A stretch of DNA of 50,255 nt from a phage. The notes under the pieces were generated by a model, which ran no database searches, had not been told where the DNA came from, and worked only from the letters and a program-made list of their open reading frames with translations. Made by a program: the position numbers and the translations under genes. Position 1 is the first letter of the stretch; each line of letters opens with the position of its first letter. Below, in pieces: positions 1,904 through 48,424 of this stretch. The stretch lies in sequence record PV636259.1. One strand, given 5' to 3'.

Positions 1904-1921
1904 GTTTTGCAAAAAGTGCTA
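1904..1921 (-). promoter_or_regulatory. Operator/promoter motif copy (minus orientation; AATAGCACTTTTTGCAAAAC)
   Basis: Member of the TAGCA-N5-TGCTA family; followed on the minus strand by a hairpin and TAAGGAG RBS of the 281..1849 gene. Confidence 0.5.
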
Positions 1922-1925
1922 TTGG

Positions 1926-2342
1926 TTATAAGTATTTGGCCTCAAAGGTTGTGCCGTCAGCTATGCTAAAACCGATCTCTTCGCGAAATAATGTCCAACG
2001 GCAACCATCATCATCAAAAATATAACCAGCTACGCCGCCGAGAGCGCGACCGCTTTCCACTTGGTAACGCTTGCCAAGTTTGAATGATTTTTTCATCGGA
2101 TTTCGATGATCAAGTCCGGTGCACTTTAGCGTCTTTGTTTTCAACTCAGTGAACTTAGCGAAGAAGATTTCATCAGATCCGTGAATTTGTAATTCATCAT
2201 GCTTTTCAAGTTTTAAATACTTCCCGCATTTTAATTTTACTTCGCGAGTGCCATCGAAACGCTCTCGACCTTTGTATAGGTTGTTAACTTCAAATCCTGT
2301 GATTTTATCAGCGTAAGTACATTTCAGTTTGATTGATTTCAT
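1926..2342 (-). CDS. Hypothetical protein (138 aa)
   Basis: Track ORF; preceded (minus strand) by the ACCAATCAGGAG translation-initiation element. Confidence 0.55.
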   Translation of the reverse strand: MKSIKLKCTYADKITGFEVNNLYKGRERFDGTREVKLKCGKYLKLEKHDELQIHGSDEIFFAKFTELKTKTLKCTGLDHRNPMKKSFKLGKRYQVESGRALGGVAGYIFDDDGCRWTLFREEIGFSIADGTTFEAKYL

Positions 2343-2405
2343 CGCATTAACTCCTGATTGGTTATCTTGAATAAGGTCACTTTATCAAATGACCTTACGG
2401 CAATA

Positions 2406-2425
2406 TTAACAAATCGTGCTATTTA
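2406..2425 (-). promoter_or_regulatory. Operator/promoter motif copy (minus orientation; AATAGCACGATTTGTTAATA) overlapping the stop of 2423..2632
   Basis: TAGCA-N5-TGTTA palindrome followed by hairpin AAGGTCA...TGACCTT and the ACCAATCAGGAG leader. Confidence 0.5.
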
Positions 2426-2632
2426 CCAGGGAATATAATCGTCGTCGTCCTCATCAATATCATCGCCAGGTAACTCGAAGTTTGGATTATATTCGCTTTC
2501 TGCGTCCATATCCATATTCCCTAGCGCGTCATCAAGTGTGATTTCTTTATATGCAACCTTGATACACCATTCCGCACTAAGCCCGGCATCAAGAGCGGCA
2601 AAATAACGAGTCCAGAAATTATCCCGTTCCAT
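2423..2632 (-). CDS. Hypothetical acidic protein (69 aa; C-terminal DDIDEDDDDYIPW)
   Basis: Track ORF; start set to the ATG (second codon of the track ORF). Highly acidic C-terminus. Confidence 0.5.
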   Translation of the reverse strand: MERDNFWTRYFAALDAGLSAEWCIKVAYKEITLDDALGNMDMDAESEYNPNFELPGDDIDEDDDDYIPW

Positions 2633-2635
2633 CAA

Positions 2636-2860
2636 TTAACTCCATGAATTAATGTAAATTGAGTTAGCCTCAAGCGTAGCGCGCACATCAGCATCTGTTG
2701 CATTTACTAAGCGCGAGCCTGGCGTGCTGCCGATAACGTTATTACCGTTACGAGTCTTAGTTACCGTCATTGAAATAAAACCGGAAGACTTATCCATTTT
2801 GATAACTACACGGCCTTTCGCGTTCAGGTGCTTGATGATATTCTCAACTTTAATGCTCAT
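2636..2860 (-). CDS. Hypothetical protein (74 aa)
   Basis: Track ORF with AAGGAATTAAAAATG-type RBS on the minus strand. Confidence 0.5.
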   Translation of the reverse strand: MSIKVENIIKHLNAKGRVVIKMDKSSGFISMTVTKTRNGNNVIGSTPGSRLVNATDADVRATLEANSIYINSWS

Positions 2861-2919
2861 TTTTAATTCCTTTGTTTGTTTGGTGTGGGAGTAATATACC
2901 TTACTCCCTGCTGATTGTC

Positions 2920-2939
2920 TTTAGCTATTCGTGCTATCA
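2920..2939 (-). promoter_or_regulatory. Operator/promoter motif copy (minus orientation; TGATAGCACGAATAGCTAAAG)
   Basis: Motif then hairpin GGGAGTAAGG...TTACTCCC then RBS of the 2636..2860 gene. Confidence 0.5.
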
Positions 2940-3979: not shown

Positions 3980-4035
3980 GGTGATTACCTCGTTTTCTGT
4001 TGATGGGAGAACTATAGCAGCCCTCCCGCATTTTC

Positions 4036-4054
4036 GTTTAGCAGAAAGTGCTAT
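4036..4054 (-). promoter_or_regulatory. Operator/promoter motif copy (minus orientation; AATAGCACTTTCTGCTAAAC) with downstream TATAGT and CATCAACAG leader
   Basis: Palindrome TAGCA-N5-TGCTA, then TATAGTTCTCCCATCAACAGAAAACGAGG, then the ATG of 3608..3979. Confidence 0.55.
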
Positions 4055-4456: not shown

Positions 4457-4498
4457 TCTCGTTTCGATGAGGTAATTATGCCAAATCGCACCGATCGA

Positions 4499-4519
4499 GT
4501 TTTAACAAAAAGTGCTATT
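4499..4519 (-). promoter_or_regulatory. Operator/promoter motif copy (minus orientation; GAATAGCACTTTTTGTTAAAAC) overlapping the stop of 4502..5206
   Basis: Full-consensus motif read as reverse complement; followed by CATAAT and the conserved leader. Confidence 0.55.
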
Positions 4520-5206
4520 CGCGATTGCTTTGAAAAATCCCCTTGGCGACAGAGATCGTATCAGTTTTGTTTTGGCAGACTTGCCGCCTAGCTTGCTGTG
4601 CTGTGCAGAGTACCCGTCAGGCAGTCTTACAGGTTTTCTTTCAGGCATGACAAAATCGTCAGAGGTCCACAGACAAGTTTTCTTCGGGTAAGCATCGCGC
4701 GGCGCAATATACATCGGGAACCAGGGGTGTGCGTCATTCTCTGGAAGATAGCCACCATACTCCCAGGGATTGAAGGAGTGATTTGGTTTTCTCCACGCAG
4801 AAGACAGGACGCTTACCGGATTCTCAATGATGTAAGTCACGCCCAGGCTATCGCCAATGTTCGCAGCAATCCGGGCGGTGGCAACAGCCTTCTCCTGGAA
4901 TAACGGATCGCGCTCACGCTTTCTGGCGAAGTGAGCAGCACCACTAACAGCCAGGTCAGTGCACGGCGGGAAGGCCATAATGAAATCAGGCTTGCCATAC
5001 ACGCCAGCGATAGCATCACGCTCGAACGCTGCGTCAATGAACACGTTCACATACTCAATGTTCGGATGCTCCACTCTGGCATTGTACTTTGCGTAATCTC
5101 CGTGATCGGCTCCGTCAAAGTTGAAGCACATCACCTTATGACCTTGCTTTGCCAGTTCATGACCAGCAAGCCCGGAACCGTCGAATAGTGACCAAATTAA
5201 TTTCAT
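4502..5206 (-). CDS. Short SAM-methyltransferase-like protein resembling the catalytic core of DNA cytosine-5 methyltransferases (234 aa)
   Basis: Order and spacing of FDGSG (motif I-like), FPPC (motif IV-like, Pro-Cys) and IENPV (motif VI-like ENV) match C5-MTase architecture; no target-recognition domain or motifs IX/X evident. First gene of the leftward early operon. Confidence 0.5.
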   Translation of the reverse strand: MKLIWSLFDGSGLAGHELAKQGHKVMCFNFDGADHGDYAKYNARVEHPNIEYVNVFIDAAFERDAIAGVYGKPDFIMAFPPCTDLAVSGAAHFARKRERDPLFQEKAVATARIAANIGDSLGVTYIIENPVSVLSSAWRKPNHSFNPWEYGGYLPENDAHPWFPMYIAPRDAYPKKTCLWTSDDFVMPERKPVRLPDGYSAQHSKLGGKSAKTKLIRSLSPRGFFKAIANSTFC

Positions 5207-5268
5207 CGTGACTTCCTCTTCTGATTGGTTTATGAGCTGGACTATACACGATCTACCCGACCGAGTCG

Positions 5269-5286
5269 TTAGCGAAAAATGCTATT
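5269..5286 (-). promoter_or_regulatory. Operator/promoter motif copy (minus orientation; AATAGCATTTTTCGCTAA) upstream of the MTase-like gene
   Basis: Followed on the minus strand by TATAGT and ACCAATCAGAAGAGGAAG RBS region, then the ATG at 5206. Confidence 0.5.
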
Positions 5287-5471
5287 CCAATAATTGCTCA
5301 TTATTCCATCAATACTGGAATATCTGGAATAATTACGATCATGATTGATCTCGAATGATGAAATGTGATTGTTGCATGGTGTGCAACAGTTGGTTGATTT
5401 GTTGCTTAGATTGCAATGATTGTGAGAGGGTGGATTTGGTGTTACCCGGTTCGCCTGGTGGTCATCTCCAT

Positions 5472-5490
5472 TTTTAGCAAAACGTGCTAT
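5472..5490 (-). promoter_or_regulatory. Operator/promoter motif copy (minus orientation; ATAGCACGTTTTGCTAAAA)
   Basis: Second copy in the control region, about 200 bp upstream of the first in the minus direction. Confidence 0.45.
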
Positions 5491-5893
5491 CGATTACACT
5501 TTAACTTGTCACGATTGTAATATTTGTCTAGAATCGCACTTGTGACAAAATTACGCACTGTGACGCCCCACAATAGACATATGGATATATGTATATATAT
5601 AATATATATAGTGTTTTTTTATTTATATATATAGATAATTATATTGTAATAGTTGTGTATAGCCGTCTTACATTGTCTAGCGTACTGTTGGCATATTTCT
5701 ATCTGCATGTTTATATATACAGTACTTTTTTGAGAGTCATATATTTCTATGTGTACTCTAGACAGCTAGACAAATGTTACACAGCTTAAAATTGGCTCGC
5801 AGGCATTGACGGCCCTGCATTGCGCTGTCACAATGGCAATTGTTGACATGTTATGACACCATTTACACATCAATAGACAAATGAGGATGGATT

Positions 5894-6415: not shown

Positions 6416-6682
6416 ATGAGTATGAGCAAGATTAAGCATGACGCCCTGAAAGGTATCTTGATGCGACTAAACCCAGGCGAAGCATTCCAGCTTAACCCCG
6501 AGACATTCGGGTTCGTCGGCTTCTATAGACTTGGCCTACAGATGAGTTCGCCAGCCGATGAGCTGGTCCGGTATGTGCGAAAGCAGTTCGGCGTCGAGAT
6601 GATTAGTCTCGGAAAGGTGCAAGGCATCCAGACATTCATCTTTAAGCCAAATGAGATTCGTTGCTTCACGCTGATGAAATAG
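6416..6682 (+). CDS. Hypothetical protein (88 aa)
   Basis: Track ORF; its stop TAG is the first three bases of a motif copy. Confidence 0.55.
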   Translation: MSMSKIKHDALKGILMRLNPGEAFQLNPETFGFVGFYRLGLQMSSPADELVRYVRKQFGVEMISLGKVQGIQTFIFKPNEIRCFTLMK

Positions 6683-6698
6683 CACTTTTTGTTAAAAC
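6680..6698 (+). promoter_or_regulatory. Operator/promoter motif copy (TAGCACTTTTTGTTAAAAC) + hairpin + TATTAT + CATCGACAC leader
   Basis: Read directly; the stop codon of 6416..6682 is embedded in the motif. Confidence 0.6.
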
Positions 6699-6754
6699 CC
6701 GACCGAGCGGATCGGGTATTATCTTCTCATCGACACGATACAGAGGAAGCGAAG

Positions 6755-6951: not shown

Positions 6952-7419
6952 ATGGCGACAATTACCGTATTCCTGGCTAAAGATGAGATTGATGGCGAAA
7001 TGTCATTCTTCGCGTTTGAGCACAAAACCGGATCGCACTGGCACATGTACAGTCACTACACGGTTATTGATATCAACTCATACCGCGCAGGCTCACTTAC
7101 TGAAAAGCTGGGTTGCTTCATTGGAGCTATCAAGGCGAACAATGGCTGCGATTGTGAAGATGAGCAAGAGCGTCGCATGTGCGATATGATTAACCCGGTC
7201 TATCTTGAGTCTTTCGATCTTGATTCTGATGTGACCATTAAGGTGAGAAAGTCGGGTGAGTTGTTGCCAGGGATGCGTGTGCTGACTGGTTACTCGGGCC
7301 GTAAGGTGTGGCGCACTGTATCCAAGATTCGCCAGCGTTCGGCAACATGCTATAGCGTATTCTTTAATGATGGCTGGAATGAGGTTGCTGGCAGTAACGT
7401 GAAGTATCTTACCAAATAG
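6952..7419 (+). CDS. Hypothetical protein (155 aa)
   Basis: Track ORF; stop TAG embedded in the next motif. Confidence 0.55.
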   Translation: MATITVFLAKDEIDGEMSFFAFEHKTGSHWHMYSHYTVIDINSYRAGSLTEKLGCFIGAIKANNGCDCEDEQERRMCDMINPVYLESFDLDSDVTIKVRKSGELLPGMRVLTGYSGRKVWRTVSKIRQRSATCYSVFFNDGWNEVAGSNVKYLTK

Positions 7420-7435
7420 CACGAATTGTTAAAAC
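7417..7435 (+). promoter_or_regulatory. Operator/promoter motif copy (TAGCACGAATTGTTAAAAC) + TGCTATAGT extended -10 + CCATCGAAACG leader
   Basis: Read directly. Confidence 0.6.
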
Positions 7436-7493
7436 AGGATCGTGGTATCTTGCTATAGTTACCCCATCGAAACGCTTCTTGGCAAACCCAAAA

Positions 7494-8206: not shown

Positions 8207-8380
8207 ATGATGCGTATATTTATTTGCATGATGGCGTCGGTCGCCCTGGCTATCCTGGTAGTGTCCGGCTGTGGCGAGGTCAAAGAGCGATGCCATGAAA
8301 CCGGGAACCAGGTTACTACATTCGTGATGGTTGGCAATGTTTTACTACCAATCACATCAAATGAAATCACTTGCGAATAG
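8207..8380 (+). CDS. Small putative lipoprotein (57 aa; signal peptide with VSGC lipobox)
   Basis: MMRIFICMMASVALAILVVSGCGEV...; start set to the ATG after GGGGGCG. Stop TAG embedded in the next motif. Confidence 0.45.
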   Translation: MMRIFICMMASVALAILVVSGCGEVKERCHETGNQVTTFVMVGNVLLPITSNEITCE

Positions 8381-8396
8381 CACTTTTTGTTAAAAC
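8378..8396 (+). promoter_or_regulatory. Operator/promoter motif copy (TAGCACTTTTTGTTAAAAC) + hairpin enclosing GATATAGT + CATCGACAACG leader
   Basis: Read directly. Confidence 0.6.
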
Positions 8397-8451
8397 GCGA
8401 TCATGTGGTTGCGATATAGTAACCACATCGACAACGAACGAGGACGAGAAC

Positions 8452-8940
8452 ATGAAAATTAAATTACTTTGCACTGGCGGTTACAAAGGCTTTACTCGCG
8501 ACCTAGAAGCCGATCCTATTATCGTTGACGCCGTGAAGTGCGATGATAGCATTGGCGGCTACAGAGTCAAGGTCGATGACCTGGTTAAAGCTGGCGTGTA
8601 CGATCTTGATTACGGCCTATCGGTTAGTCCGGCATTTGGCCCGGCTGACTTCAACGAGAAGGACGGAACGATGTTCTTTTTTGAATGGGAAGTCCAGGCA
8701 AACATCAAGCCGCGCAAGGTTCGACTTCTCAACAATGGCGGGTATCCTATGCGCCCTGGTTATGAGAATCGCACGTTCCCGGTTATTGTTGACTTTGAAG
8801 AAATCACTAACAACTTGGTATACGTTAGCCATGAGCACCTGCGAGCCGTTGGATTCGTTGGCGGTATGCATAAAGAAGCACTATGCTTCGTTCGCGAGGA
8901 AATGCACGGTTACTATTCTGAGTGTGAGTTAGTTTACTAA
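8452..8940 (+). CDS. Hypothetical protein (162 aa)
   Basis: Track ORF 8371..8940 trimmed to the ATG after GAGGACGAG. Confidence 0.55.
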   Translation: MKIKLLCTGGYKGFTRDLEADPIIVDAVKCDDSIGGYRVKVDDLVKAGVYDLDYGLSVSPAFGPADFNEKDGTMFFFEWEVQANIKPRKVRLLNNGGYPMRPGYENRTFPVIVDFEEITNNLVYVSHEHLRAVGFVGGMHKEALCFVREEMHGYYSECELVY

Positions 8941-8955
8941 GCACGAATTGTTAAA
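8938..8955 (+). promoter_or_regulatory. Operator/promoter motif copy (variant TAAGCACGAATTGTTAAA) + hairpin + TGGTACAAT
   Basis: Read directly; stop TAA of 8452..8940 embedded. Confidence 0.5.
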
Positions 8956-9011
8956 TGGGGATTCATCCTGACTGGTACAATCCCCACATCAACCACTAAG
9001 AGGAAATCATT

Positions 9012-9518: not shown

Positions 9519-9667
9519 TGGCTGCATGGGTATTGATTATCTTGATGAGCACCGGGCCGGATCACGTATACATGGAAAGTCAGCAAGCATGTAACAAGGC
9601 TCGGGAAGTAATTGCAGAAAACAAGCCGTTCGGATATGAAGTAAAAACAATGTGCGTTAAAAGATAG
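9518..9667 (+). CDS. Possible small membrane protein (49 aa)
   Basis: Hand-found ORF MAAWVLIILMSTGPDHVYMES... with ATG overlapping the upstream stop (TAATG); its stop TAG starts the next motif. Below track cutoff. Confidence 0.35.
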   Translation: MAAWVLIILMSTGPDHVYMESQQACNKAREVIAENKPFGYEVKTMCVKR

Positions 9668-9683
9668 CACGAATTGCTAAACC
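9665..9683 (+). promoter_or_regulatory. Operator/promoter motif copy (TAGCACGAATTGCTAAACC); hairpin GGCCA...TGGCC encloses TGTTATAGT
   Basis: Read directly. Confidence 0.55.
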
Positions 9684-9774
9684 TTCCGCAAGGCCATTTG
9701 TTATAGTGGCCTTATTGAAGCACGGCAACCAACCAATCAGGCTGAATGCAGGATAATTTAATGAGGTTTTATCT

Positions 9775-11268: not shown

Positions 11269-11487
11269 ATGGCTACTATCATGACAGCGGAAGATGCAGC
11301 GCGTGAAGCAGTGGAAGGGATGCGCCCAAATACCTCCAGAATCGCACACTACTACAATTTTGACGTGTCGGCAGTGCAGCTGGTCCATGAAATTTTAAGG
11401 CTCCCACAAGTTGATTCAGTGCGCGTGGTGACGTGCTTAAAAAATTATTTTTGCATCACTATTAAAATGAATAGCACGAATTGCTAA
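11269..11487 (+). CDS. Hypothetical protein (72 aa); last five codons (N-S-T-N-C-stop) are encoded by the motif itself
   Basis: Track ORF; ...AATAGCACGAATTGCTAA read in frame. Confidence 0.5.
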   Translation: MATIMTAEDAAREAVEGMRPNTSRIAHYYNFDVSAVQLVHEILRLPQVDSVRVVTCLKNYFCITIKMNSTNC

Positions 11488-11490
11488 AAC
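11472..11490 (+). promoter_or_regulatory. Operator/promoter motif copy (TAGCACGAATTGCTAAAAC); hairpin GGGGAAT...ATTCCCC encloses GCTATGAT
   Basis: Read directly. Confidence 0.6.
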
Positions 11491-11544
11491 CTATCAAGGG
11501 GAATGCGCTATGATTCCCCTACACCAAAAAACGAGGGAACACTC

Positions 11545-11991
11545 ATGAAACATTTGATTTGCATTGACACACCTAACAATGAATACACCCTATACGAAAT
11601 TGGAATGTTCAAAGGCCACTACATGACAGCAAGCATTTATGATGCGCGTCGAGGCGATGGCGATCTGATTATTACGTCAAAAGACGTTAATCCGTACATT
11701 ATGCAGAATCTTGGCAATAATGAATATATGGCTTACGGCTGCAACGCGGTGTACAAACATGTCAAGATCCGTAAGCGTATTGTTCGAGCGTTTAAGAAAA
11801 TCGCCATGAAGCACTGGAAGATGAGCAAGAAGGAGGCTGGGCGCTGGGCGCGTAACGTTGCTGATTCATACTTCTATCGTAACGGTGAGTCGTGCTGCTT
11901 CCTGATCGATGAAATGATGGAAAATTATAGCGGCACATTCTGCCAAAGTGATTTTGACGCTTGGGCTGACTACGAGGTAGATTGCTGGTAA
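11545..11991 (+). CDS. Hypothetical protein (148 aa)
   Basis: Track ORF 11503..11991 trimmed to the ATG after GAGGGAACAC. Confidence 0.55.
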   Translation: MKHLICIDTPNNEYTLYEIGMFKGHYMTASIYDARRGDGDLIITSKDVNPYIMQNLGNNEYMAYGCNAVYKHVKIRKRIVRAFKKIAMKHWKMSKKEAGRWARNVADSYFYRNGESCCFLIDEMMENYSGTFCQSDFDAWADYEVDCW

Positions 11992-12010
11992 TAGCACTAA
12001 TTGCTAAAAC
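11992..12010 (+). promoter_or_regulatory. Operator/promoter motif copy (TAGCACTAATTGCTAAAAC); hairpin AAGGGCA...TGCCCTT encloses GGTAGAAT
   Basis: Read directly; abuts the TAA stop of 11545..11991. Confidence 0.6.
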
Positions 12011-12073
12011 TTGCTCAAGGGCATTTGGTAGAATGCCCTTCGTTGAGTTAAGCAACCAATCAGAGGAATCACT

Positions 12074-12918: not shown

Positions 12919-13491
12919 ATGAAAACAGCTATCATTTTAAACGGCGCTCCTGGAGCAGGCAAGGACACTATCGGATGCATCCTGGCTGACACTTACGATC
13001 ATGTAGCTTTGCGCAGCTTCAAAGCACCAATGTTTGAGATTGCTCGGGCAATCCTGGGTGAGGCTAACTACGAGTATTTCATGTTCTTGTATGAGGATCG
13101 TCGTTACAAAGAAGAGCCAGCGTCAATCCTGAACGGTAAAAGCCCGCGCCAGTTTATGATCTGGATTAGCGAGGAAGTAATCAAGCCGCAGTTCGGAAAT
13201 CGCTTCTTCGGTATGCGAGCGGAAAGCAAGGTCAAAGAGTCATATTCTCTGTCAGTATTTACTGATGGTGGATTCAAAGATGAGGTATTGCAGATGATTG
13301 AAGGTGATATCCAGGTCAAGCTATGCCGAATCCACCGCAAGGGCGGCAACTTTGACAACGACAGTCGTGATTATATTTACCTGGAAGATATGATCGGGGT
13401 TAATGGTTATCAGGAGTGTGATTTCTTCTCTGTCGAAGGTCATCCAGAAATTACCGCTCAGCACATAGCCGCTACGTTCATCAACAAATAG
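12919..13491 (+). CDS. P-loop kinase (190 aa): polynucleotide-kinase-like or dNMP-kinase-like
   Basis: N-terminal Walker A LNGAPGAGKDT. GAPGAGK resembles polynucleotide kinase P-loops and SGKDT resembles phage dNMP kinases; adjacent to the HAD phosphatase. Confidence 0.55.
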   Translation: MKTAIILNGAPGAGKDTIGCILADTYDHVALRSFKAPMFEIARAILGEANYEYFMFLYEDRRYKEEPASILNGKSPRQFMIWISEEVIKPQFGNRFFGMRAESKVKESYSLSVFTDGGFKDEVLQMIEGDIQVKLCRIHRKGGNFDNDSRDYIYLEDMIGVNGYQECDFFSVEGHPEITAQHIAATFINK

Positions 13492-13507
13492 CACGAATTG
13501 CTAAAAC
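13489..13507 (+). promoter_or_regulatory. Operator/promoter motif copy (TAGCACGAATTGCTAAAAC) + TGATATAGT extended -10 + CTCATCGACAAC leader
   Basis: Read directly; TAG stop of the kinase gene embedded. Confidence 0.6.
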
Positions 13508-13563
13508 GTCGGTGGGGTGATTTGATATAGTTACCTCATCGACAACAAAGAGAGAAAATCGAA

Positions 13564-15276: not shown

Positions 15277-15300
15277 AACCCGCTTCGGCGGGTTTTTTTA
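15277..15300 (+). terminator. Rho-independent terminator (AACCCGCTTCGGCGGGTT + T7) closing the rightward early operon
   Basis: GC hairpin with GCTTCGGC tetraloop-like centre followed by TTTTTTT. Confidence 0.7.
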
Positions 15301-15319
15301 TGCCTGCAATATGGTAAAA

Positions 15320-15337
15320 TAGCACTAAATGTTAAAC
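15320..15337 (+). promoter_or_regulatory. Operator/promoter motif copy (variant TAGCACTAAATGTTAAAC) immediately upstream of terS
   Basis: Read directly; no hairpin between it and the terS RBS. Confidence 0.45.
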
Positions 15338-15352
15338 AAAGAGGATTGATTT

Positions 15353-22007: not shown

Positions 22008-22026
22008 CATAAAAACACTTTGACGC

Positions 22027-22045
22027 TTTAACAAAAAGTGCTATT
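22027..22045 (-). promoter_or_regulatory. Operator motif copy in reverse orientation (AATAGCACTTTTTGTTAAA) inside the late structural operon
   Basis: Read as reverse complement of TTTAACAAAAAGTGCTATT; lies between the decoration gene and a terminator. Confidence 0.5.
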
Positions 22046-22051
22046 ATTGAA

Positions 22052-25717: not shown

Positions 25718-25791
25718 ATCATATCCGCATGGGGGCTTGCGCCCCCTTCTTCATTTCTGTAAAATCATCGTATCAACTTTGCGCTCTTTGC

Positions 25792-25811
25792 TTTTAACAA
25801 AAAGTGCTATT
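25792..25811 (-). promoter_or_regulatory. Operator motif copy in reverse orientation (AATAGCACTTTTTGTTAAAA) directly upstream of the chaperone RBS
   Basis: Read as reverse complement of TTTTAACAAAAAGTGCTATT; followed on the plus strand by ACCAATCAGGAG and ATG. Confidence 0.5.
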
Positions 25812-29772: not shown

Positions 29773-29813
29773 GTAGCTGTAGAATGGTTGCAACTAAACA
29801 AGAGGAAAAGACA

Positions 29814-31927: not shown

Positions 31928-31952
31928 AACCCGCCTTGCGCGGGTTTTTTTT
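31928..31952 (+). terminator. Rho-independent terminator (CCCGCCTTGCGCGGG + T8), followed by TGTATAATG extended -10
   Basis: Read directly. Confidence 0.7.
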
Positions 31953-32000
31953 CGCCTGTATAATGAGTCCACCAATAAATAGCACAAAAAGGTAAACATC

Positions 32001-38258: not shown

Positions 38259-38332
38259 ACGGCACAAATAGCTAAACAAATAATTAATGAGGTGTTATAA
38301 TGCACCTCATACACCAATCAGGAGAAGTTAAT

Positions 38333-38980
38333 ATGCAATTATCACCAGAAACAAACGAAATCCTTCCTGCACTGTTCAATGCTCGCAACAAATTCGCGAA
38401 AGCAAAGAAGGACGCTAAAAACAATCACCTGAAAAACTCATACGCAACTCTTGATGCAATGATGGCGGCAGTAAGCCCAGCACTAACCGATAACGATATT
38501 ATGATCCTGCAATCAATGCTGGATACCAGTACTGAAACAACTTTCCATCTTGAAACGATGCTTATTCACAAATCCGGGCAGTGGGCCAAATTCTTCATGA
38601 TGATGCCGATTGCAAAGCGCGATCCGCAAGGCGTAGGTTCCGCAATGACGTATGCTCGACGTTACTCATTAGCCGCAGCGCTGGGGATTAGCCAGAGTGA
38701 TGACGATGCTCAGCTTGCAGTAAAATCTGTCAAGGACTGGAAGAAAGAACTTGATGCGTGTGAAGATATCGAATCACTGAAAGAGGTATGGGCTAACGCT
38801 TACCGACAGACGGACACGGCAAGCAAGTCAATCATTCAGGATCACTACAACGCACTTAAGGCTAAGTTTGAGATCGGTAAAGCTCGCGGTATTCGCCCGG
38901 CACAACCGGAACAGAAAAAACAGGTTGAAGCAACGAGCGCGAAGCCTGTACAATCTCAATCAATCACCAACTTCGAATAA
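38333..38980 (+). CDS. erf: Erf-family single-strand annealing protein (215 aa)
   Basis: KNSYATLDAMM and AMTYARRYSLAAALG motifs; start trimmed to the ATG after ACCAATCAGGAG. Confidence 0.7.
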   Translation: MQLSPETNEILPALFNARNKFAKAKKDAKNNHLKNSYATLDAMMAAVSPALTDNDIMILQSMLDTSTETTFHLETMLIHKSGQWAKFFMMMPIAKRDPQGVGSAMTYARRYSLAAALGISQSDDDAQLAVKSVKDWKKELDACEDIESLKEVWANAYRQTDTASKSIIQDHYNALKAKFEIGKARGIRPAQPEQKKQVEATSAKPVQSQSITNFE

Positions 38981-39026
38981 TCATCAGGGCGGCTTCGGTC
39001 GCCCATAAATTTTAGGAGAGAAAAAC

Positions 39027-39475: not shown

Positions 39476-41321
39476 ATGATTGTTTAAGTGATTTTATTTC
39501 TTCTTTTAGAGAAGATACTTGCTTTGAAAGCTCCTGTATCGAAGCTATAGCGTCAAGCAAAAGAACATTCTCATCCAGTGATAGCGTGTAATCTTCTCCA
39601 TTCATATTTCCGTACTTTCTAACGTACTGACTATCTATGCTCATAAGTTGTTGAGCTATGAACCCTCTCCTTACAGTTTTCTCCTTGTCATAATTGTATG
39701 TGAATGATCGGTATTTCATTTTCATCAAATTGTCAAGCGCCAATCTTGTTTCAATATCCTTTATGTCGCTTTTAAGTCTCTCATCTGACACTGGAGACTT
39801 GGAAAATATATAGTTGACAGTACCTGAGTTATTCCCAAACGTTATGTCGTAACTCTCAGCGTTGAACGATGTATTCCTTACAATGTCACCGTTTGGCTGA
39901 TTACCTGAAGCTATATCATAATCGTACACCTGAGATATTACCGCGTGAGGGTGAGAACCATCTGGAAAAATAAGCGAACCAAGAGAGATAAAATTCCTCC
40001 AACCGCCGTTGGATACACCAACGCCGCCACCAACTAGACCAATATAACCGCTGTACTGAGAACTCATCCATGTGTTAGCCAATGTCAAATAGGTATTACC
40101 TGGAGCATATCCAGTTCCATTTGGTACTAGACCCTTGTTAAAAATCAACTTTCCGTCCAGTTTGAAATCCCACGTTGCCGCGCCCTGCTTATATCTGTCA
40201 TTGATTGTTGTTATCCTTGTCCATATATCTATTTCATTACCTCCCTGCAATTCGAAAGAGGATCTGTACTTATCAACTTCACCAACCTTGAATTTTGAAT
40301 CAATCCTGCCGCCTGAAGAATCGGAACCTCTTGGCGGCTCAGAGTCTACATTTTTATAAATAGACCAGTCGTTTACTTTTAGGCCTTTCTCAACCCAACC
40401 CTTAGTAGTTGCGTCCATGTTGCCTTCAGGATCTTTAAGTAACTCTAATGGGGCGTCTGGCCTCAAGTTTTTCCATGATTCTAATTTATCCACAAGACCA
40501 GCTAGATTTCCATCCTTAGTTAAAAGGTTTTCAGCATTAACGCTATTTACTGCGTCTTTCGCTTCCTGAGCACTTACCGCCGCCGCATTTTTTGCGCTTA
40601 CCGCATTGTCACGCGCTACCTGAGCGTCATTTTTTGCAGAGGTCGCAGTTTGTGCTGCCGTTTGAGCGTCATTAACGTAACCAGATAAATCACCTTTCGC
40701 GTCATTAATGGCCTGAATCGCTGCCGCCTCTTCAGTGTCAATGTGAGTGATGACAGATGATTCCTTAGATCCTATATCAGTAATAGCCTGATCCTTTGCT
40801 GCATTAATACTACCTACAGCACCGTCAACAATTTGTTGAGTCTGGTTCTTGATTGAGTTAGTTTCATCTCGTGCAGCGTTGGCTGCGTCACGCGCTAATT
40901 CAGCCTGATTTTGCGCAGCTTGAGAATCAGATTTCGCCTGATTCACCTCAGCAACTATTTGCTCAAGTTTATCCATATCAAGCTGATTGATGATATCAAG
41001 AGCCGCAGCAATCTCAGTTTCTTTGCTCTGGTAGTATCGCAGCGTTTCAGCAACGTTTTGAGCTAAGCCATTTACAGTCAGTGAATCGTTAAGCAGGATC
41101 ACATACTTACCGTCAGCAGCAGTCTGACCATCCGTAGAGATAGCCTTTAACTCAGTGTCGCTCACGATATCGCTGATTACAGCCAGCTTAATTGGTTGCT
41201 CTAGGAATACGATAGTTGCACCTACTCGAATCAGAGCAAGCTGATCCTTCCATTTTGTATCGGTTCCGAGAACCGTTCCATCCGCATCCATTGATGCTGT
41301 ACCGCGTCTATATAAAGCCAT
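39474..41321 (-). CDS. Tail fiber protein with C-terminal intramolecular chaperone (peptidase S74-like) domain, 615 aa
   Basis: N-terminal virion-attachment-like region, long Ala/Gln-rich coiled coil, Gly-rich beta region, C-terminal SDERLKSDIKDIE...RRGFIAQQL... segment typical of autoproteolytic chaperone domains. Confidence 0.65.
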   Translation of the reverse strand: MALYRRGTASMDADGTVLGTDTKWKDQLALIRVGATIVFLEQPIKLAVISDIVSDTELKAISTDGQTAADGKYVILLNDSLTVNGLAQNVAETLRYYQSKETEIAAALDIINQLDMDKLEQIVAEVNQAKSDSQAAQNQAELARDAANAARDETNSIKNQTQQIVDGAVGSINAAKDQAITDIGSKESSVITHIDTEEAAAIQAINDAKGDLSGYVNDAQTAAQTATSAKNDAQVARDNAVSAKNAAAVSAQEAKDAVNSVNAENLLTKDGNLAGLVDKLESWKNLRPDAPLELLKDPEGNMDATTKGWVEKGLKVNDWSIYKNVDSEPPRGSDSSGGRIDSKFKVGEVDKYRSSFELQGGNEIDIWTRITTINDRYKQGAATWDFKLDGKLIFNKGLVPNGTGYAPGNTYLTLANTWMSSQYSGYIGLVGGGVGVSNGGWRNFISLGSLIFPDGSHPHAVISQVYDYDIASGNQPNGDIVRNTSFNAESYDITFGNNSGTVNYIFSKSPVSDERLKSDIKDIETRLALDNLMKMKYRSFTYNYDKEKTVRRGFIAQQLMSIDSQYVRKYGNMNGEDYTLSLDENVLLLDAIASIQELSKQVSSLKEEIKSLKQS

Positions 41322-41342
41322 AGTATAAACTCCTTAAGTAAA

Positions 41343-41360
41343 TAGCACGAATTGCTAAAC
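41343..41360 (+). promoter_or_regulatory. Operator motif copy (TAGCACGAATTGCTAAAC) in plus orientation between two minus-strand genes
   Basis: Read directly; orientation opposite to the flanking genes. Confidence 0.5.
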
Positions 41361-41401
41361 GCTGATTTTATCATTGTGCTATCCGACTTGCAATGGACAA
41401 T

Positions 41402-41424: not shown

Positions 41425-42357
41425 GAGTAGGTCACTTGCTGAGAATAACTTGGCTTGCATTCCTGAGCGGTATCCTCCAGGATTTGGGATGATTATTTTT
41501 AATTGTCGGTCGTCTGCCATGTATAAAGTCTCCTTGTCTGAAGGTTCGCACGCAACCCTTACTTCTCGATCCCCTTTATATCTGTATGCAACCATTTCCA
41601 GATTCTCAGGAGTGAAGCAGGCCCATACCTCTTGCTTTGTGTGAAATGCAATATGCTGAGCATCAATCCAATTAAGGCATAAGTAGATCGCTTTTTCTGT
41701 TTTACCAGTCACGGCAACCGAGCAACTTGTGTATTTCTTAGCGTAAAATGACTCCCTACCCTCCTCATCAATAATCAAAATATTACAAAACTCATCATCA
41801 AGACCGTCCTCGTGTACAAGTTGACATGGTATGGTGTGAAATACGCTCTCGCCGCCATCCTCGCGACGTTTTACGCCAACGTCGAATGATTCAGTAGGTA
41901 GAGATTCAAACATGCTTAGAGGTGTGTTTACGCGCTTCTCTGTACGCTCCATGACTTTCATCACCGCTTCATGATCTGCCATCATGACATTGACACCAGA
42001 TACCGGAGTTCGGCGCGCTTTCTTGTTTGCCTTGACGATGTATTCCTGCGGAACTTTTCCGAGAAATCTTCCCAGGATATTTATGCATTCGCTATACGGC
42101 ATACCAGTTAATTTCATTAGCCACCCGATCCCGGAGTCGTTACCGCATGAGTTGCAGATCGCACCTCCGTCGCCCGGAGTGTTCAGGTTATCAGTCCAGC
42201 GAAAGCGGTCTTTACCTCCGCAGTTAGGGCAAGGTTGGTGCTTCTTATTAAAAACATCATTCGGCAATCCGCAGATTGATTGGAAAGCCTCGCGCCATAA
42301 CCCCTTCATGTACGGCAAAACGTCCTCTTTCTGAAACATCATAAATTCTTCGTTCAC
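41422..42357 (-). CDS. DNA primase (zinc-binding + TOPRIM-like), 311 aa
   Basis: CPNCGG...CNSCGN zinc motif near the N-terminus; acidic IIIDEEGRES segment; position next to the helicase. Confidence 0.6.
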   Translation of the reverse strand: MNEEFMMFQKEDVLPYMKGLWREAFQSICGLPNDVFNKKHQPCPNCGGKDRFRWTDNLNTPGDGGAICNSCGNDSGIGWLMKLTGMPYSECINILGRFLGKVPQEYIVKANKKARRTPVSGVNVMMADHEAVMKVMERTEKRVNTPLSMFESLPTESFDVGVKRREDGGESVFHTIPCQLVHEDGLDDEFCNILIIDEEGRESFYAKKYTSCSVAVTGKTEKAIYLCLNWIDAQHIAFHTKQEVWACFTPENLEMVAYRYKGDREVRVACEPSDKETLYMADDRQLKIIIPNPGGYRSGMQAKLFSASDLL

Positions 42358-42415: not shown

Positions 42416-42416
42416 G

Positions 42417-42436
42417 TTTTAACTAAAAATGCTATT
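42417..42436 (-). promoter_or_regulatory. Operator motif copy (minus orientation; AATAGCATTTTTAGTTAAAAC) forming the last six codons of the HTH gene
   Basis: N-S-I-F-S-stop is encoded by AATAGCATTTTTAGTTAA. Confidence 0.5.
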
Positions 42437-42871
42437 GGTCGTTCCGATATCTTCCTTCTTCACGACGCGCATAAATTTCTTGTTCTTGCATCGCTTCTCA
42501 AGGCACTTGCCGTTACCGTCAAACTTCAGGTCGAATCGCAACCATGCGGCACGAAATCCTTTGCACCCCTGTCGGCGGTAAGCGCGATGCGCAGCTTCAG
42601 CGCCTTGCCATGAAATCATATTTCGATCTTTCCAGCCTTGCACCGTCTGATTGCTAACTTTTAGAGCCTTTGCGCAGGCCGCAGGGCCGCCGTAATATTC
42701 GATAAGAGCATCAAGTCGCGCTCGCAGTCCGGCGCGTGTTTCTTCTTTATGAATATAGAACCCGCAACGCTGTCGAGGCTTTTTATCTTTACCGCGCCGT
42801 GTTCCGTTGTTACCATTGATGTGACGTTTATCGATTTCACCAGTTGACTCTGCGATACGTTGAATACTCAT
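42419..42871 (-). CDS. Putative DNA-binding protein with helix-turn-helix segment (150 aa)
   Basis: AKALKVSNQTVQGWKDRNMISWQGAEAA resembles Cro/CI-type HTH; basic N-terminus. Confidence 0.5.
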   Translation of the reverse strand: MSIQRIAESTGEIDKRHINGNNGTRRGKDKKPRQRCGFYIHKEETRAGLRARLDALIEYYGGPAACAKALKVSNQTVQGWKDRNMISWQGAEAAHRAYRRQGCKGFRAAWLRFDLKFDGNGKCLEKRCKNKKFMRVVKKEDIGTTNSIFS

Positions 42872-42884
42872 CTTGATTCTCCTA

Positions 42885-42904
42885 TAGCACTTTTTGCTAA
42901 AAAC
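42885..42904 (+). promoter_or_regulatory. Operator/promoter motif copy (TAGCACTTTTTGCTAAAAAC) upstream of the helicase
   Basis: Read directly in the 93-bp divergent gap. Confidence 0.55.
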
Positions 42905-42964
42905 GTTTACTTTATGCCGTGTATTATAGCGTAAACGTTACAACGATTCAAAGGATTAATAGCC

Positions 42965-44983: not shown

Positions 44984-45396
44984 TTACAGATAAAGGCGAT
45001 TACTTAGAGTTTTACGAGCGAGATCCTAGCGACACTAGAAAGGAGGACGCTCATCAGGTAGATTGCGTTTCCTGGCTGAAATACAACTTCCCACACCTTC
45101 TATTTTGGCACACTGTAAATGAAGGTGAAAAAACAATCACTTCAGCACTCAGGGATGAGCAGGCTGGATTACTTAAAGGTGTGTCAGATTTCGTTATCCT
45201 GATTGGTGTAAACTCACGTTACCCGTTCGCAGCTATCGAACTCAAACGGGTTAATAAGTCCGGCAAGGGAAAGGCGTCACCAGTCAGCGATAAGCAAAGG
45301 GAGTTTCTCAAAAAGGTTCGGGATCGCGGTGGATTCTCTGCCGTTGCATACGGATTTGAGCAATTCAAGATCGCAATATACGAAATGATGAAATAG
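44980..45396 (+). CDS. VRR-NUC-type nuclease (138 aa)
   Basis: GVSDFVIL...AAIELKRVNKSGKGKASPVSDKQREFLKKV pattern; ATGA overlap with helicase stop. Confidence 0.55.
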   Translation: MITDKGDYLEFYERDPSDTRKEDAHQVDCVSWLKYNFPHLLFWHTVNEGEKTITSALRDEQAGLLKGVSDFVILIGVNSRYPFAAIELKRVNKSGKGKASPVSDKQREFLKKVRDRGGFSAVAYGFEQFKIAIYEMMK

Positions 45397-45411
45397 CACT
45401 TTTTGCTAAAC
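45394..45411 (+). promoter_or_regulatory. Operator/promoter motif copy (TAGCACTTTTTGCTAAAC) + hairpin + CATTAT + CTCACCAAAACGAGAGG leader
   Basis: Read directly; TAG stop of the nuclease gene embedded. Confidence 0.6.
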
Positions 45412-45463
45412 ATGCCGGAATGGAATCTGGCATTATTACCTCACCAAAACGAGAGGAATAAAA

Positions 45464-46177: not shown

Positions 46178-46425
46178 TGAGCGAAAAAATGGTTCCTGTT
46201 AAATTAACTGAGCAAGGTTTATGGCTTCTTTATCGCGCTACGTGCTGCGAGATTATGGAACGAAACGGATTGAATCAGGATGTTATTGGTTGCGATCTGT
46301 GGGAGTTCACTAGTTCTCTTGATATGTCTTTCGATGAGATAAAAAATGAATACATAGAGAATTGGCCTTCAATCATACAGAAAGACGTGGAAGAACTTAA
46401 AGCTGACACGATCTTACAGCACTAA
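46174..46425 (+). CDS. Hypothetical protein (83 aa)
   Basis: Track ORF 46132..46425 trimmed to the ATG overlapping the dam stop; stop TAA lies inside the next motif. Confidence 0.5.
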   Translation: MMSEKMVPVKLTEQGLWLLYRATCCEIMERNGLNQDVIGCDLWEFTSSLDMSFDEIKNEYIENWPSIIQKDVEELKADTILQH

Positions 46426-46435
46426 TTGCTAAAAC
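46418..46435 (+). promoter_or_regulatory. Operator/promoter motif copy (AGCACTAATTGCTAAAAC) + hairpin ACCCGGCGAAAGTCGGGT + ATAGTT + CATCAAAACGAAATGAGG leader
   Basis: Read directly. Confidence 0.6.
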
Positions 46436-46491
46436 TACCCGGCGAAAGTCGGGTATAGTTATTTCATCAAAACGAAATGAGGAATAAGAAG

Positions 46492-46701
46492 ATGGCACGC
46501 ATTAACGCAAACTTTTTCAATATCGCTCAACAGTCCGCAAAAATGGCTGTTCATATCACTGACAAGAAAGGCGGTAACTTTGATTGGGATATTGCTATGA
46601 ACTTCCTTAAAATGGCTTATTACCTCTGCTCAGTCAAAGATGTTGAGTGTTTTATTGAAAGCGTGGAGAAACTAACCAATGCTGATAAAAAAACAAGGTA
46701 A
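46492..46701 (+). CDS. Hypothetical protein (69 aa)
   Basis: Track ORF trimmed to the ATG after GAGGAATAAGAAG. Confidence 0.5.
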   Translation: MARINANFFNIAQQSAKMAVHITDKKGGNFDWDIAMNFLKMAYYLCSVKDVECFIESVEKLTNADKKTR

Positions 46702-46951
46702 ACGAGAGGTTTGGGAGCACGCGAAGGAATGCGGAATCTCAGACGATATAGCACTAATAGCGAAATATTTCGATATAAAGGATGTTAGCATTATCTCAAA
46801 TGGCAAGATTTCATTTATGGAAGATATGCCGAGAAAAATGCATAGAGTGCCAGCAACTCCGTCACTTGAGTTTTATCGTGAAGAGGGAAAGAGAATTGAG
46901 AGAGAACGAAAAGCAGCAAAGAACAACAAGCCTTCCAGGCTTAAACATTAA
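46679..46951 (+). CDS. Hypothetical protein (90 aa)
   Basis: Track ORF; overlaps the previous gene by 23 nt across an A7 run. Confidence 0.45.
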   Translation: MLIKKQGKREVWEHAKECGISDDIALIAKYFDIKDVSIISNGKISFMEDMPRKMHRVPATPSLEFYREEGKRIERERKAAKNNKPSRLKH

Positions 46952-47183
46952 CGAAGACGATTACCAGACCATATGGATCGGAAAGAAACAAGTTAAGAAA
47001 ATCCCTTTCTCTGATTGGTTGCCTCCTGACTTCGTTAACGTGCTTTGCACTATTGGGATCGAGCAAGAGTTGCATATAGGTTATTACTCACCAGGTAGAA
47101 ACAGCATGATGCTTGAGGTTGATGGAAAACTGGTTGAGTTTAAATCTTCAGATCTAGGATTCTGGTTAAAGGCTGTGGCATGA
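46782..47183 (+). CDS. Hypothetical protein (up to 133 aa); true start unresolved
   Basis: Track ORF overlapping 46679..46951 by 170 nt in the +1 frame; the downstream part looks protein-like. Confidence 0.35.
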   Translation: MLALSQMARFHLWKICREKCIECQQLRHLSFIVKRERELRENEKQQRTTSLPGLNINEDDYQTIWIGKKQVKKIPFSDWLPPDFVNVLCTIGIEQELHIGYYSPGRNSMMLEVDGKLVEFKSSDLGFWLKAVA

Positions 47184-47261
47184 GACTTTATTTTGCTGTA
47201 GTATTAACACCGCTAATTTCATTTTCAGTAATGTATTTCATTATCATGTAAGGATTAAAAT

Positions 47262-48413
47262 ATGTCACAAGCTAAAATCACTACCGAGCAACTTATCGAA
47301 GAGCGCATGAGCGGCCTTACACTTCGCGAGATTGCGGAAAAGTACGGTATGCACATCCGCACAGTTGAAGCGCGTCACGCAAAACTTGCAAAAGAAGGCC
47401 ACTTCCACGGCAACGAGCATGTTGCTAAAAACGTTCCAGAAGGATTCATGGTAAAAGGTACATCTACTATGATTCGCGGTGATGGGACGGAAGTTGTTCG
47501 ATGGGTTAAGACCGATCAGGACCGTGAGAAGATTGCGGCAATGATGGAAGCGGCGCGTATTGCATTCTGTGAAGACCTGCCGCGAGCAAAGCCAACTGAG
47601 CTACTAACCTCACAAGGTCTTACAACAGCGATTGGTAAGCTGGCACTCTATCCGGTATTCGATCTTCATATCGGTGCGCTTGCTCATAAGCATGAATGCG
47701 GAGAGAACTATTCCACCGACGTAGCGGAAAAAGTGCTTAGCGACTTCTTTAATTACGCGATCGATATTGCTCCGAACGCAGAGAAGGCAGTTCTTTTAAT
47801 CGGCGGTGACTTCCTTCACTCGGACGGTCTTGATGCTGTTACCCCTGCAAGTGGTCACGTTCTGGATCAGGATTCACGATATGCAAAATTGGTGCATGTA
47901 GCTATTAGATCTGTTCGTCGCGCTATCGACAAAATGCTACTGAAACACAAGGAAGTCGAAGTCCAGGTTATCGAAGGGAACCACGACCAGGCAGGGATGA
48001 TTTGGCTACGCGCTGCAATGTCGGCATATTATGAAGACGAGCCGCGAGTATTCGTTGACGTTAGTCCTATGATTCTGCATAAGACCCGCTGGGGAAATAC
48101 CTTGTTGGGATACACTCACGGTCACACGATGAAAAAGGCAGACACGCGACTTGCAGCGATGGCGGCAGACTTCCGTGCAGACTTCGGTGAAAGCAAATAC
48201 GTGTATACTCACAGCGGACACTGGCATCATCAAACAATCACAGAGCACTCGCTTGGTATTGATGAAGTGCACGGTCAGTTAGGCGCGAAAGATGCATACG
48301 CAGCACGCGGAGGGTGGCGCTCATATCGCCAGGCGGCTGTAATTGTTTACGATAAGCAGTTTGGGGAAATAGGTCGCTTCATCTATCGTCCAGAAATGAC
48401 AGGATCGCACTAA
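47262..48413 (+). CDS. Calcineurin-like metallophosphoesterase with N-terminal helix-turn-helix segment (383 aa)
   Basis: Phosphoesterase motifs DLHIG, GGDFLHSDG, EGNHD, YTHGH, THSGHWHH; N-terminal LTLREIAEKYGMHIRTVEARHAKL HTH-like segment. Confidence 0.65.
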   Translation: MSQAKITTEQLIEERMSGLTLREIAEKYGMHIRTVEARHAKLAKEGHFHGNEHVAKNVPEGFMVKGTSTMIRGDGTEVVRWVKTDQDREKIAAMMEAARIAFCEDLPRAKPTELLTSQGLTTAIGKLALYPVFDLHIGALAHKHECGENYSTDVAEKVLSDFFNYAIDIAPNAEKAVLLIGGDFLHSDGLDAVTPASGHVLDQDSRYAKLVHVAIRSVRRAIDKMLLKHKEVEVQVIEGNHDQAGMIWLRAAMSAYYEDEPRVFVDVSPMILHKTRWGNTLLGYTHGHTMKKADTRLAAMAADFRADFGESKYVYTHSGHWHHQTITEHSLGIDEVHGQLGAKDAYAARGGWRSYRQAAVIVYDKQFGEIGRFIYRPEMTGSH

Positions 48414-48424
48414 TTGATAAAAAC
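48406..48424 (+). promoter_or_regulatory. Operator/promoter motif copy (variant CGCACTAATTGATAAAAAC) + hairpin GCCCGAAGGGATTCGGGC + ATAGTA + CACATCGAAAC leader
   Basis: Read directly. Confidence 0.5.

Follow-up and report, generated by a model that had tools for sequence, protein, structure and literature searches.

The phage sequence PV636259.1 (50,255 nucleotides, referred to here as the window) carries a short intergenic repeat that, judged from its letters, corresponds to the marbox of Escherichia coli in sequence, direction and spacing. Upstream of early and replication genes, copies of this repeat form part of composite cassettes, which would be class II marbox promoters served by the host activators MarA, SoxS or Rob, a reading held at slightly better than even odds (about 55%). 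The window is a complete or nearly complete Tunavirus genome (T1-like, Drexlerviridae), and its tested arm is 94% identical to Shigella phage phi2457T and ~89% identical to T1. Small genes lie in two arms, running leftward from ~5.5 kb and rightward from ~5.9 kb, structural genes are at 15.3-35.5 kb, and replication and lysis genes at 37-50 kb.

A 2024 re-annotation of phage TLS described a 21-nt intergenic direct repeat, aaATAGCACnnnTTGnTAAAA, in TLS, T1, Rtp and Rogue1, for which stoperators, enhancers or UP elements were proposed, and listed its function as an open question for T1-like phages (PMC11447400). The fixed -10, the hairpin statistics, the late-gene copies and the marbox identity reported below are not in that paper (PMC11447400). 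In the searchable literature, which did not cover the Rtp and T1 genome papers, neither transcript mapping for any T1-like phage nor a link between Drexlerviridae and a marbox, MarA, SoxS or Rob was found. The marbox as an element type and the repeat were both known already; the identification of one with the other, and a dual early and late arrangement, appear to be new. T1 itself belongs to the seven classic T phages. Recognition of the repeat as a marbox makes its function directly testable.

A directional motif matching the marbox

Copies of TAGCA-N5-TGCTA with at most one mismatch numbered 23 in the window, against 1.55 expected (shuffle maximum 4). An earlier sequence-only reading of the window had listed about 24 copies and had taken their inverted repeat as the signature of a dimeric DNA-binding protein. 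The number was confirmed, every listed coordinate being recovered within 1-3 nt, and additional high-scoring copies were present at 31979 and 38259. The dimer signature was not. When sites were picked by a symmetric rule and position pairs were then checked for complementarity, complementarity was confined to the 5-bp arms: positions 1/17 are A/A (0.94 and 0.99, 3% complementary), positions 0/18 are A/A (10%), positions 7/11 are C/T (0%), and the partner of the invariant G4 is C (0.63) or T. Two-fold symmetry across the conserved positions, as in an operator of a Cro/cI-type dimer, was not found, only the 5-bp arms being symmetric. Rather than a true palindrome, the motif is a directional site, and its conserved asymmetries rule out pure two-fold symmetry. 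These asymmetries are those of the classical marbox consensus, AYNGCACNNWNNRYYAAAYN, and as this consensus already contains GCA-N5-TGY, the palindrome seen earlier is largely implied by the marbox.

The marbox is a non-palindromic site that one molecule of MarA, SoxS or Rob reads with two helix-turn-helix (HTH) motifs. The definition used by the Grainger laboratory, gcannwwntgnnaaa, had 21 exact matches in the window against 1.02 expected (shuffle maximum 3). The consensus obtained by chromatin immunoprecipitation sequencing (ChIP-seq), gcactaattgctaaa, and the yneO site of E. coli are matched letter for letter by the 15-mers at 11994 and 46419, and the pheP site of E. coli by the 15-mer at 15322; MarA binds both of these E. 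coli sites in vivo (ChIP-seq) and in vitro at 0.3 uM. With a scoring matrix derived solely from 33 E. coli ChIP sites, at least 16.3 bits were reached by 22 window sites and by only 7 of the 33 E. coli sites, and at least 14 bits by 30 window sites, as compared with 1.06 in shuffles. The positions left free by the search pattern also agree with AYNGCACNNWNNRYYAAAYN (A1 0.91, T2 0.87, C7 0.93, C/T14 0.56/0.38 and T15 0.93).

Conservation in related genomes, to be expected of a common regulon, was found across subfamilies, with 20 exact marbox matches in T1, 19 in the TLS-like phage U136B, 15 in Klebsiella phage Sweeny (Webervirus), of which 14 have a -10 in place, and 14 in Rtp (Braunvirinae). 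Lambda and the unrelated Shewanella phage MSO-5 have one each. IMG/VR contigs with multiple copies are all 39-54 kb in length, as are T1-like genomes.

In the structural region of Rtp, forward cassettes at 6319, 8428 and 16306 precede inserted genes (HNH endonuclease rtp20 and two hypothetical genes, rtp22 and rtp34). Mobile or moron genes may carry the cassette along with them or pick it up.

Architecture of the forward cassettes

Forward cassettes, 18 well formed and a weak one at 42416, lie upstream of early, replication and possibly lysis genes (Table 1). The -10 starts 20 bp after the 15-mer in the well-formed cassettes (21 bp in two of them). To 366 distinct copies gathered from T1-like genomes and viral contigs, a -10 was assigned by TATAAT matches, CATAAT-type hexamers being allowed, and the best one was at that same position, 18 bp after the 20-bp site, in 278 copies, one base later in 13 and one base earlier in 8. 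Agreement with TATAAT averages 4.8 of 6 positions, G is found at -14 in 86% and the full TG in 46%, and -35 matches average 1.6 of 6; a -35/-10 promoter scan called none of the cassettes.

In 17 of the 24 copies listed in the sequence-only reading, a -10-like hexamer (TATAGT, TATTAT, TACAAT, TAGAAT, TATGAT or similar) stands exactly 22 bp after TTG(C/T)TA. Hence, the view that this half-site is too distant for a sigma70 -35, which needs a spacer of 16-19 bp, was upheld, and the hexamers located 16-18 bp before the -10 are not -35-like. A sigma54 promoter was also considered and rejected. The sigma54 consensus has GG and GC elements spaced as TGGCAC-N5-TTGC, and TAGCAC-N3-TTGC is 2 bp short of this, with AG replacing GG.

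The geometry is that of micF, a class II promoter with solved Rob and SoxS complexes in which one monomer occludes sigma70 region 4 from the -35. In micF, the 15-mer GCACTGAATGTCAAA is followed after 20 bp by TAGAAT, and the cassettes share this gap, the forward marbox over the -35 position with GCAC distal and TAAA proximal, the lack of a -35 hexamer and the canonical -10. The GCAC end is distal in 19 of 19 forward cassettes, and the site centre is at ~-40 to -42 relative to the predicted start, in agreement with the activator-like position suggested earlier. As in the class II MarA/SoxS/Rob(/RamA) promoters of Enterobacteriaceae generally, the site is a 20-bp non-palindromic marbox with GCAC and YAAA elements. 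Salmonella class II promoters defined by ChIP-seq and cappable-seq likewise have forward sites near -41, a canonical -10 and -35 matches averaging 1.9. The phage differs from the micF type in having ~20 near-consensus copies in a 50-kb virulent genome, whereas host sites are mostly degenerate, and in the fusion of its copies to an upstream stop codon, a GC-rich hairpin and a conserved initial transcribed sequence. The E. coli ybjC marbox is followed by TACAGT at 21 bp and, having no mapped start, is not counted as evidence.

The remaining parts of the composite cassette described in the sequence-only reading, namely a conserved leader, a variable GC-rich hairpin and an embedded stop codon, were recovered together with the motif and the fixed -10. 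CA occupies the predicted -1/+1 in 70% of the 366 copies and is followed by ATCGAAAC or ATCGACAAC, with a Shine-Dalgarno sequence ~13 nt further on. For the 44 nt following the motif, the folding energy is -11.8 kcal/mol; shuffles give -5.8 and random 44-mers taken from the window -6.5 (279 distinct variants, not independent of one another phylogenetically). Folding is stronger for the transcribed strand than for its complement (-11.8 vs -10.3, Wilcoxon 5e-14). A contribution of G-U pairs would have this effect, and the difference suggests a role at the RNA level. Relative to T1, the stem at 8380 has a compensatory change (GTGGTT/AACCAC vs GGGGTT/AACCCC). The hairpin lies upstream of the predicted start and would therefore be present only in transcripts that run through from the preceding gene, consistent with its proposed membership of the upstream transcript. 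Stems of the early-cassette hairpins are strong, yet none met the T-run rule of the terminator scan; where the hairpin lies wholly within the spacer, the A/T-rich -10 gives a partial U-rich tail. No Rfam match to a known RNA family was obtained in the window for the hairpin or leader. The T1 record NC_005833.1 annotates cassette hairpins at 38973-39001, 39998-40024 and 41980-42007 as rho-independent terminators; these lack a U tract and overlap the -10 and the predicted start site.

Comparison of the ends of open reading frames (ORFs) with motif coordinates showed that the TAG of TAGCAC is the stop codon of, for example, ORFs ending at 6682, 7419, 8380, 9667, 13491 and 45396, and that the central TAA of the motif is the stop codon of those ending at 46425 and 48413. 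The motif encodes the last codons of 11269..11487 and 42419..42871, as previously noticed, and additionally those of 4502..5206.

Proposed mechanism and candidate readers of the motif

In the proposed mechanism, a single molecule of a host-supplied activator with two HTH motifs (MarA, SoxS or Rob, or RamA in Klebsiella, Salmonella and Enterobacter) would bind the 20-bp site at ~-50 to -31 and replace the missing -35 contact through contacts with the alpha C-terminal domain and with sigma70 region 4. RNA polymerase would be placed on the -10 that begins 18 bp downstream of the site, and the first transcribed base would be the conserved A of CATCGAAAC, which lies ~25 nt before the start codon. 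In read-through RNA, the hairpin would probably be a weak terminator or a 3' stabiliser of the upstream transcript, and each cassette would therefore be an overlapping terminator-promoter joint. At late-gene sites, an occupant over the promoter spacer, the -10 or the start region would repress. As the same site would activate early and block late, one factor could turn early genes on and keep late genes off. Binding itself, the start sites, activation and late-site repression are steps that we infer.

A phage-encoded MarA-like protein was sought and rejected. MarA, SoxS and Rob as phmmer queries found nothing among 561 six-frame ORFs of the window (best E 0.4), and a Pfam scan of 59 non-structural proteins revealed no AraC-type HTH, HTH_18/HTH_AraC being matched only by the MarA control (3e-19). 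Of the two HTH proteins earlier put forward as binders, the product of 42419..42871 (-), a homologue of gp23, was retained and is the only phage-encoded regulator detected, whereas 47262..48413 belongs to a DNA repair exonuclease family (PHROG 704, E 2e-156) with no Pfam HTH match. Annotations of a 'GntR-family regulator' in U136B and in 'Vibrio phage Vc1' have no Pfam support. The absence of a phage RNA polymerase was supported, and N4-type hairpin promoters for such an enzyme were discarded: the TLS genome has no RNA polymerase or sigma gene according to its authors (PMC11447400), and none is among the 25/32 families listed for the 59 window proteins. The products of the same 59 ORFs include one match to PF25180, 'Phage antiviral trigger protein Gp54' (E 7e-36), and two to DUF7244.

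The structural model of gp23 (predicted local distance difference test score 82) has a core resembling the all-alpha Cro of Xfaso 1 and N15 (probability 0.98-1.0), and not MarA or Rob, and the sequence has a weak P22_Cro match. At the class II sites of CRP and FNR (-41.5) and of lambda cI (OR2 for PRM), which overlap the -35, the activator takes over the -35 contact, cI at PRM by contacting sigma70 region 4. The phage site resembles these in its centre near -41 to -42 over the -35 region. A gp23 dimer bound to TAGCA-N5-TGCTA near -42 might activate in the manner of cI via sigma70 region 4, the likeness to a marbox being convergent or incidental. Apart from its predicted Cro fold, gp23 is present in every T1-like lineage examined, Vc1 included; the half-site centres are 10 bp apart; and a canonical promoter of its own, TTGAAT-17-TATAAT (-; 42951 to 42923), could allow gp23 to be made at once by unaided host polymerase. 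Such a reader would also explain the persistence of cassettes in phages reported on non-enteric hosts. However, CRP, FNR and cI sites are two-fold symmetric and dimer-read, whereas the phage motif is directional, with the non-complementary pairs 1/17, 0/18 and 7/11 and the variable partner of G4, and it keeps a fixed orientation relative to the -10, which would be superfluous for a symmetric dimer. The predicted recognition helix varies by lineage (NQTVQGW, FQTIQQW, RQAVEEW, VCRLTNAY) while the DNA motif is constant, a chance 15/15 identity with the host consensus at the host's class II spacing is improbable, and accumulating gp23 would silence late genes through the repressor-like late sites when they are required. 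Activation by gp23 is regarded as unlikely.

The gp23 promoter overlaps the helicase cassette face to face. The helicase -10 TATTAT (+, 42922-42927) and the gp23 -10 TATAAT (-, 42923-42928) share nearly all bases, so that use of one of these divergent promoters should preclude use of the other, and the gp23 leader contains the marbox of the helicase cassette. The N-terminal basic arm of gp23, IDKR-INGNNGTRRG-DKK-R, is predicted to be disordered and is more conserved than its HTH, with D13, R15, N18-G22, R25, D28 and R32 invariant in 29 sequences, and the C-terminal region has conserved Cys residues.

Another early phage protein of unknown fold, encoded by a small ORF, might read the motif or redirect host polymerase, as MotA/AsiA do in T4. 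The cassettes and T4 middle promoters both have a good -10 for host polymerase, no -35 and a conserved upstream box replacing it, and TTGCTAAA is loosely like the MotA box TGCTT. Over half of the early ORFs have no detectable family, and early expression of such a factor could come from the sigma70 promoters at 5506-5603. In T4, though, the centre of the MotA box is near -30, and TGCT in the cassettes lies near -37 with rigid spacing; the box differs in sequence and in position, and the cassette spacing is unsuited to a MotA box. No candidate protein was identified, and such a reader would not account for the micF spacing or for the exact identity with the marbox consensus of the host. This explanation is rated quite improbable.

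Explanations that dispense with an activator, in which the repeat is an intrinsic UP-like promoter element or mainly a stop signal like the stoperators of mycobacteriophage L5, follow ideas raised by the TLS authors (UP element, enhancer, stoperator; PMC11447400). Like L5 stoperators, the repeats are many, asymmetric, orientation-dependent and located in short intergenic regions; they follow the direction of transcription, hairpins come after them, and the late-gene copies occupy places at which polymerase would be blocked by a bound protein. UP elements consist of A/T tracts that the alpha C-terminal domain recognises, and the invariant GCAC and TTG are unlike these. The rigid 18-bp link to the -10 and the conserved start mark the early copies as promoter parts rather than stops. 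L5 stoperators are bound by the phage repressor in lysogeny and stop elongation, whereas here most copies are in promoters of a virulent phage with no known L5-type repressor, and only 4-5 late-gene copies are in blocking positions. Both variants are considered very unlikely.

Several points weigh against service of the cassettes by host MarA, SoxS or Rob. Neither binding data nor transcript 5' ends for any T1-like phage were found in the searchable literature. In a Keio screen of LL5, a TLS-like phage, rob, marA and soxS were not among the genes recovered, which fits redundancy among the three activators but would also fit irrelevance. Unstressed cells hold little MarA and SoxS, and Rob is largely sequestered; reliance on so scarce an activator sits awkwardly with good growth of the phage in ordinary cultures. 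Extended -10 elements alone might be enough, and A3 and T11 are conserved beyond what the classical consensus requires. As the Cro-like gp23 is encoded in every motif-bearing genome, a phage-encoded reader has to be reckoned with. Phage Vc1 (NC_054898.2; reported host V. cholerae) retains 12 exact marboxes with full cassettes, and T1-like records encoding gp23 name Pseudomonas aeruginosa and Campylobacter jejuni as hosts. If these non-enteric assignments hold, an enterobacterial factor can account for the cassettes only in part; either a marbox reader exists in such hosts or their labels are questionable.

If host activators do read the cassettes, T1-like phages would be unusual virulent phages that wire most early genes to a host stress and antibiotic-resistance regulon, and mar/sox/rob status, bile salts and salicylate would alter susceptibility to Drexlerviridae. 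This has a bearing on phage therapy, since U136B and other TolC-dependent relatives are under study as a means of selecting against antibiotic resistance. If gp23 reads the motif instead, the operator and promoter architecture of the family would still be defined.

Copies at late genes and other sites

Marboxes at late genes overlap a promoter core or start region (Table 1), which look like repressor positions. These copies do not fit the earlier proposal that each small gene is its own regulated unit. The major capsid promoter, the spacer of which is filled by a backward marbox, is the best sigma70-like promoter of the late region. T1 preserves this arrangement and that at the tail-fibre gene; in U136B, one backward marbox immediately precedes the capsid gene and another lies beside the start of the tail-fibre gene.

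A wider and distinctly doubtful proposal is that the temporal programme of T1-like phages runs on borrowed MarA/SoxS/Rob, which would fire ~18 class II promoters and hold off the capsid, terminase and tail promoters. Activator already present at injection would fire early and replication genes, and the late switch would be the disappearance of the activator, with no phage regulator required. MarA is described as actively degraded and short-lived (PMC6307708). Disappearance might then come about by MarA degradation once host transcription stops, or by titration onto replicating genomes with 20-25 sites each. Under such a programme, infection efficiency would track the mar/sox/rob state (bile salts, salicylate, oxidative stress, mar-constitutive resistant mutants), and the phage would act as a sink for MarA/SoxS/Rob.

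The best canonical sigma70 matches of the early region are in the 400-bp intergenic region between the divergent arms (5490-5890). The promoter-like cluster at 5506-5603 probably gives activator-independent immediate-early transcription. The hairpin following the weak copy at 42416 has a clear T run, and a terminator is annotated there in the T1 record; the terminator scan made no call at this place.

Table 1. Marbox copies and associated promoter elements in the window (matrix scores in bits; start sites are predictions).
Feature (strand)	Marbox (bits)	-10 or promoter	Predicted start	Remarks
1864..1922 (-)	1903-1922, ATAGCACTTTTTGCAAAACG (16.3)	TATCAT 1879-1884	~1872	
2364..2422 (-)	2403-2422 (14.7)	TGn + TAAAGT 2379-2384	~2372	12-bp hairpin
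2878..2937 (-)	2918-2937 (16.8)	TATATT 2893-2898	~2886	21-bp spacing
3996..4054 (-)	4035-4054	TGn + TATAGT 4011-4016	~4004 (CATCAAC)	
4460..4518 (-)	4499-4518	TGn + CATAAT 4475-4480	~4468 (CATCGAAAC)	Marbox encodes last codons and stop of ORF 4502..5206
5226..5285 (-)	5266-5285 (13.8)	TATAGT 5241-5246		Weaker cassette; 21-bp spacing
5471..5490 (-)	5471-5490 (16.8)			No -10 at class II spacing; conserved in T1; edge of 400-bp divergent intergenic region
5506..5603 (+)		TTGTCA-17-TAGAAT (5506-5534); TAGACA-18-TATAAT (5574-5603, 11/12)		Sigma70 promoter-like sites
6679..6737 (+)	6679-6698	TATTAT 6717-6722	~6729 (CATCGACAC)	Hairpin entirely in spacer
7416..7474 (+)	7416-7435	TGn + TATAGT 7454-7459	~7466 (CATCGAAAC)	
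8377..8435 (+)	8377-8396	TATAGT 8415-8420	~8427 (CATCGACAA)	-10 inside hairpin loop
8938..8996 (+)	8938-8957	TGn + TACAAT 8976-8981	~8988	
9664..9722 (+)	9664-9683	TGn + TATAGT 9702-9707		Perfect match to AYNGCACNNWNNRYYAAAY
11471..11529 (+)	11471-11490	TATGAT 11509-11514		Marbox encodes C-terminus and stop of ORF 11269..11487
11991..12049 (+)	15-mer GCACTAATTGCTAAA (19.8)	TGn + TAGAAT 12029-12034		15-mer is the ChIP-seq consensus; micF hexamer
13488..13546 (+)	13488-13507	TGn + TATAGT 13526-13531	~13538 (CATCGACAA)	G-U pairs in stem
15312..15338 (+)	15319-15338 (19.6)	Extended -10 TGgTAAAAT 15312-15320		Marbox overlaps -10 of small-terminase promoter, just after terminator
22020..22047 (+)	22025-22044 (-)	TTGACG-16-TATTAT (with TG)		Major capsid promoter; backward marbox fills spacer
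25791..25810 (-)	25791-25810			Backward marbox ~22 nt ahead of tail gene 25832, following terminator and TGTAAAAT; conserved in T1
31979..31998 (+)	31979-31998 (15.1)	TATAAT 31959-31964		Marbox-like site 14 nt after TATAAT, in predicted 5' leader of J-like tail gene (32001)
38259..38278 (+)	38259-38278 (16.8)			Perfect classical-consensus match just before Erf gene (38300); no space for class II promoter
41342..41393 (-)	41342-41361 (plus-strand)	TTGCAA-17-TAAAAT (TG; 41393 to 41365 on minus strand)		Tail-fibre promoter; backward marbox covers predicted start region
42416..42435 (-)	42416-42435 (14.5)			Degenerate; encodes gp23 C-terminus and stop; upstream of primase gene
42884..42951 (+)	42884-42903	TATTAT 42922-42927		Helicase cassette
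45393..45451 (+)	45393-45412	TGn + CATTAT 45431-45436		Upstream of Dam methylase gene; hairpin in spacer
46416..46474 (+)	15-mer is consensus marbox (19.8)	TATAGT 46454-46459	~46466	Hairpin CCCGGCgaaaGTCGGG
48404..48462 (+)	48404-48423	CATAGT 48442-48447	~48454 (CATCGAAAC)	Central TAA of marbox is stop of exonuclease gene

On the minus strand at 25760-25810, the backward marbox is followed by TGn and TACGAT at class II spacing (TAAGAT in T1). The major tail gene could thus be subject to antisense transcription from this site, although coincidence may be the explanation.

A separate arrangement recurs in the late units at 15277-15320, 25731-25765, 29751-29783 and 31928-31964, where a strong intrinsic terminator is followed within ~20 nt by a TG-preceded, -10-only promoter (TGGTAAAAT, TGTAAAAT, TGTAGAAT and TGTATAAT). 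This late terminator-promoter joint is distinct from the early cassettes.

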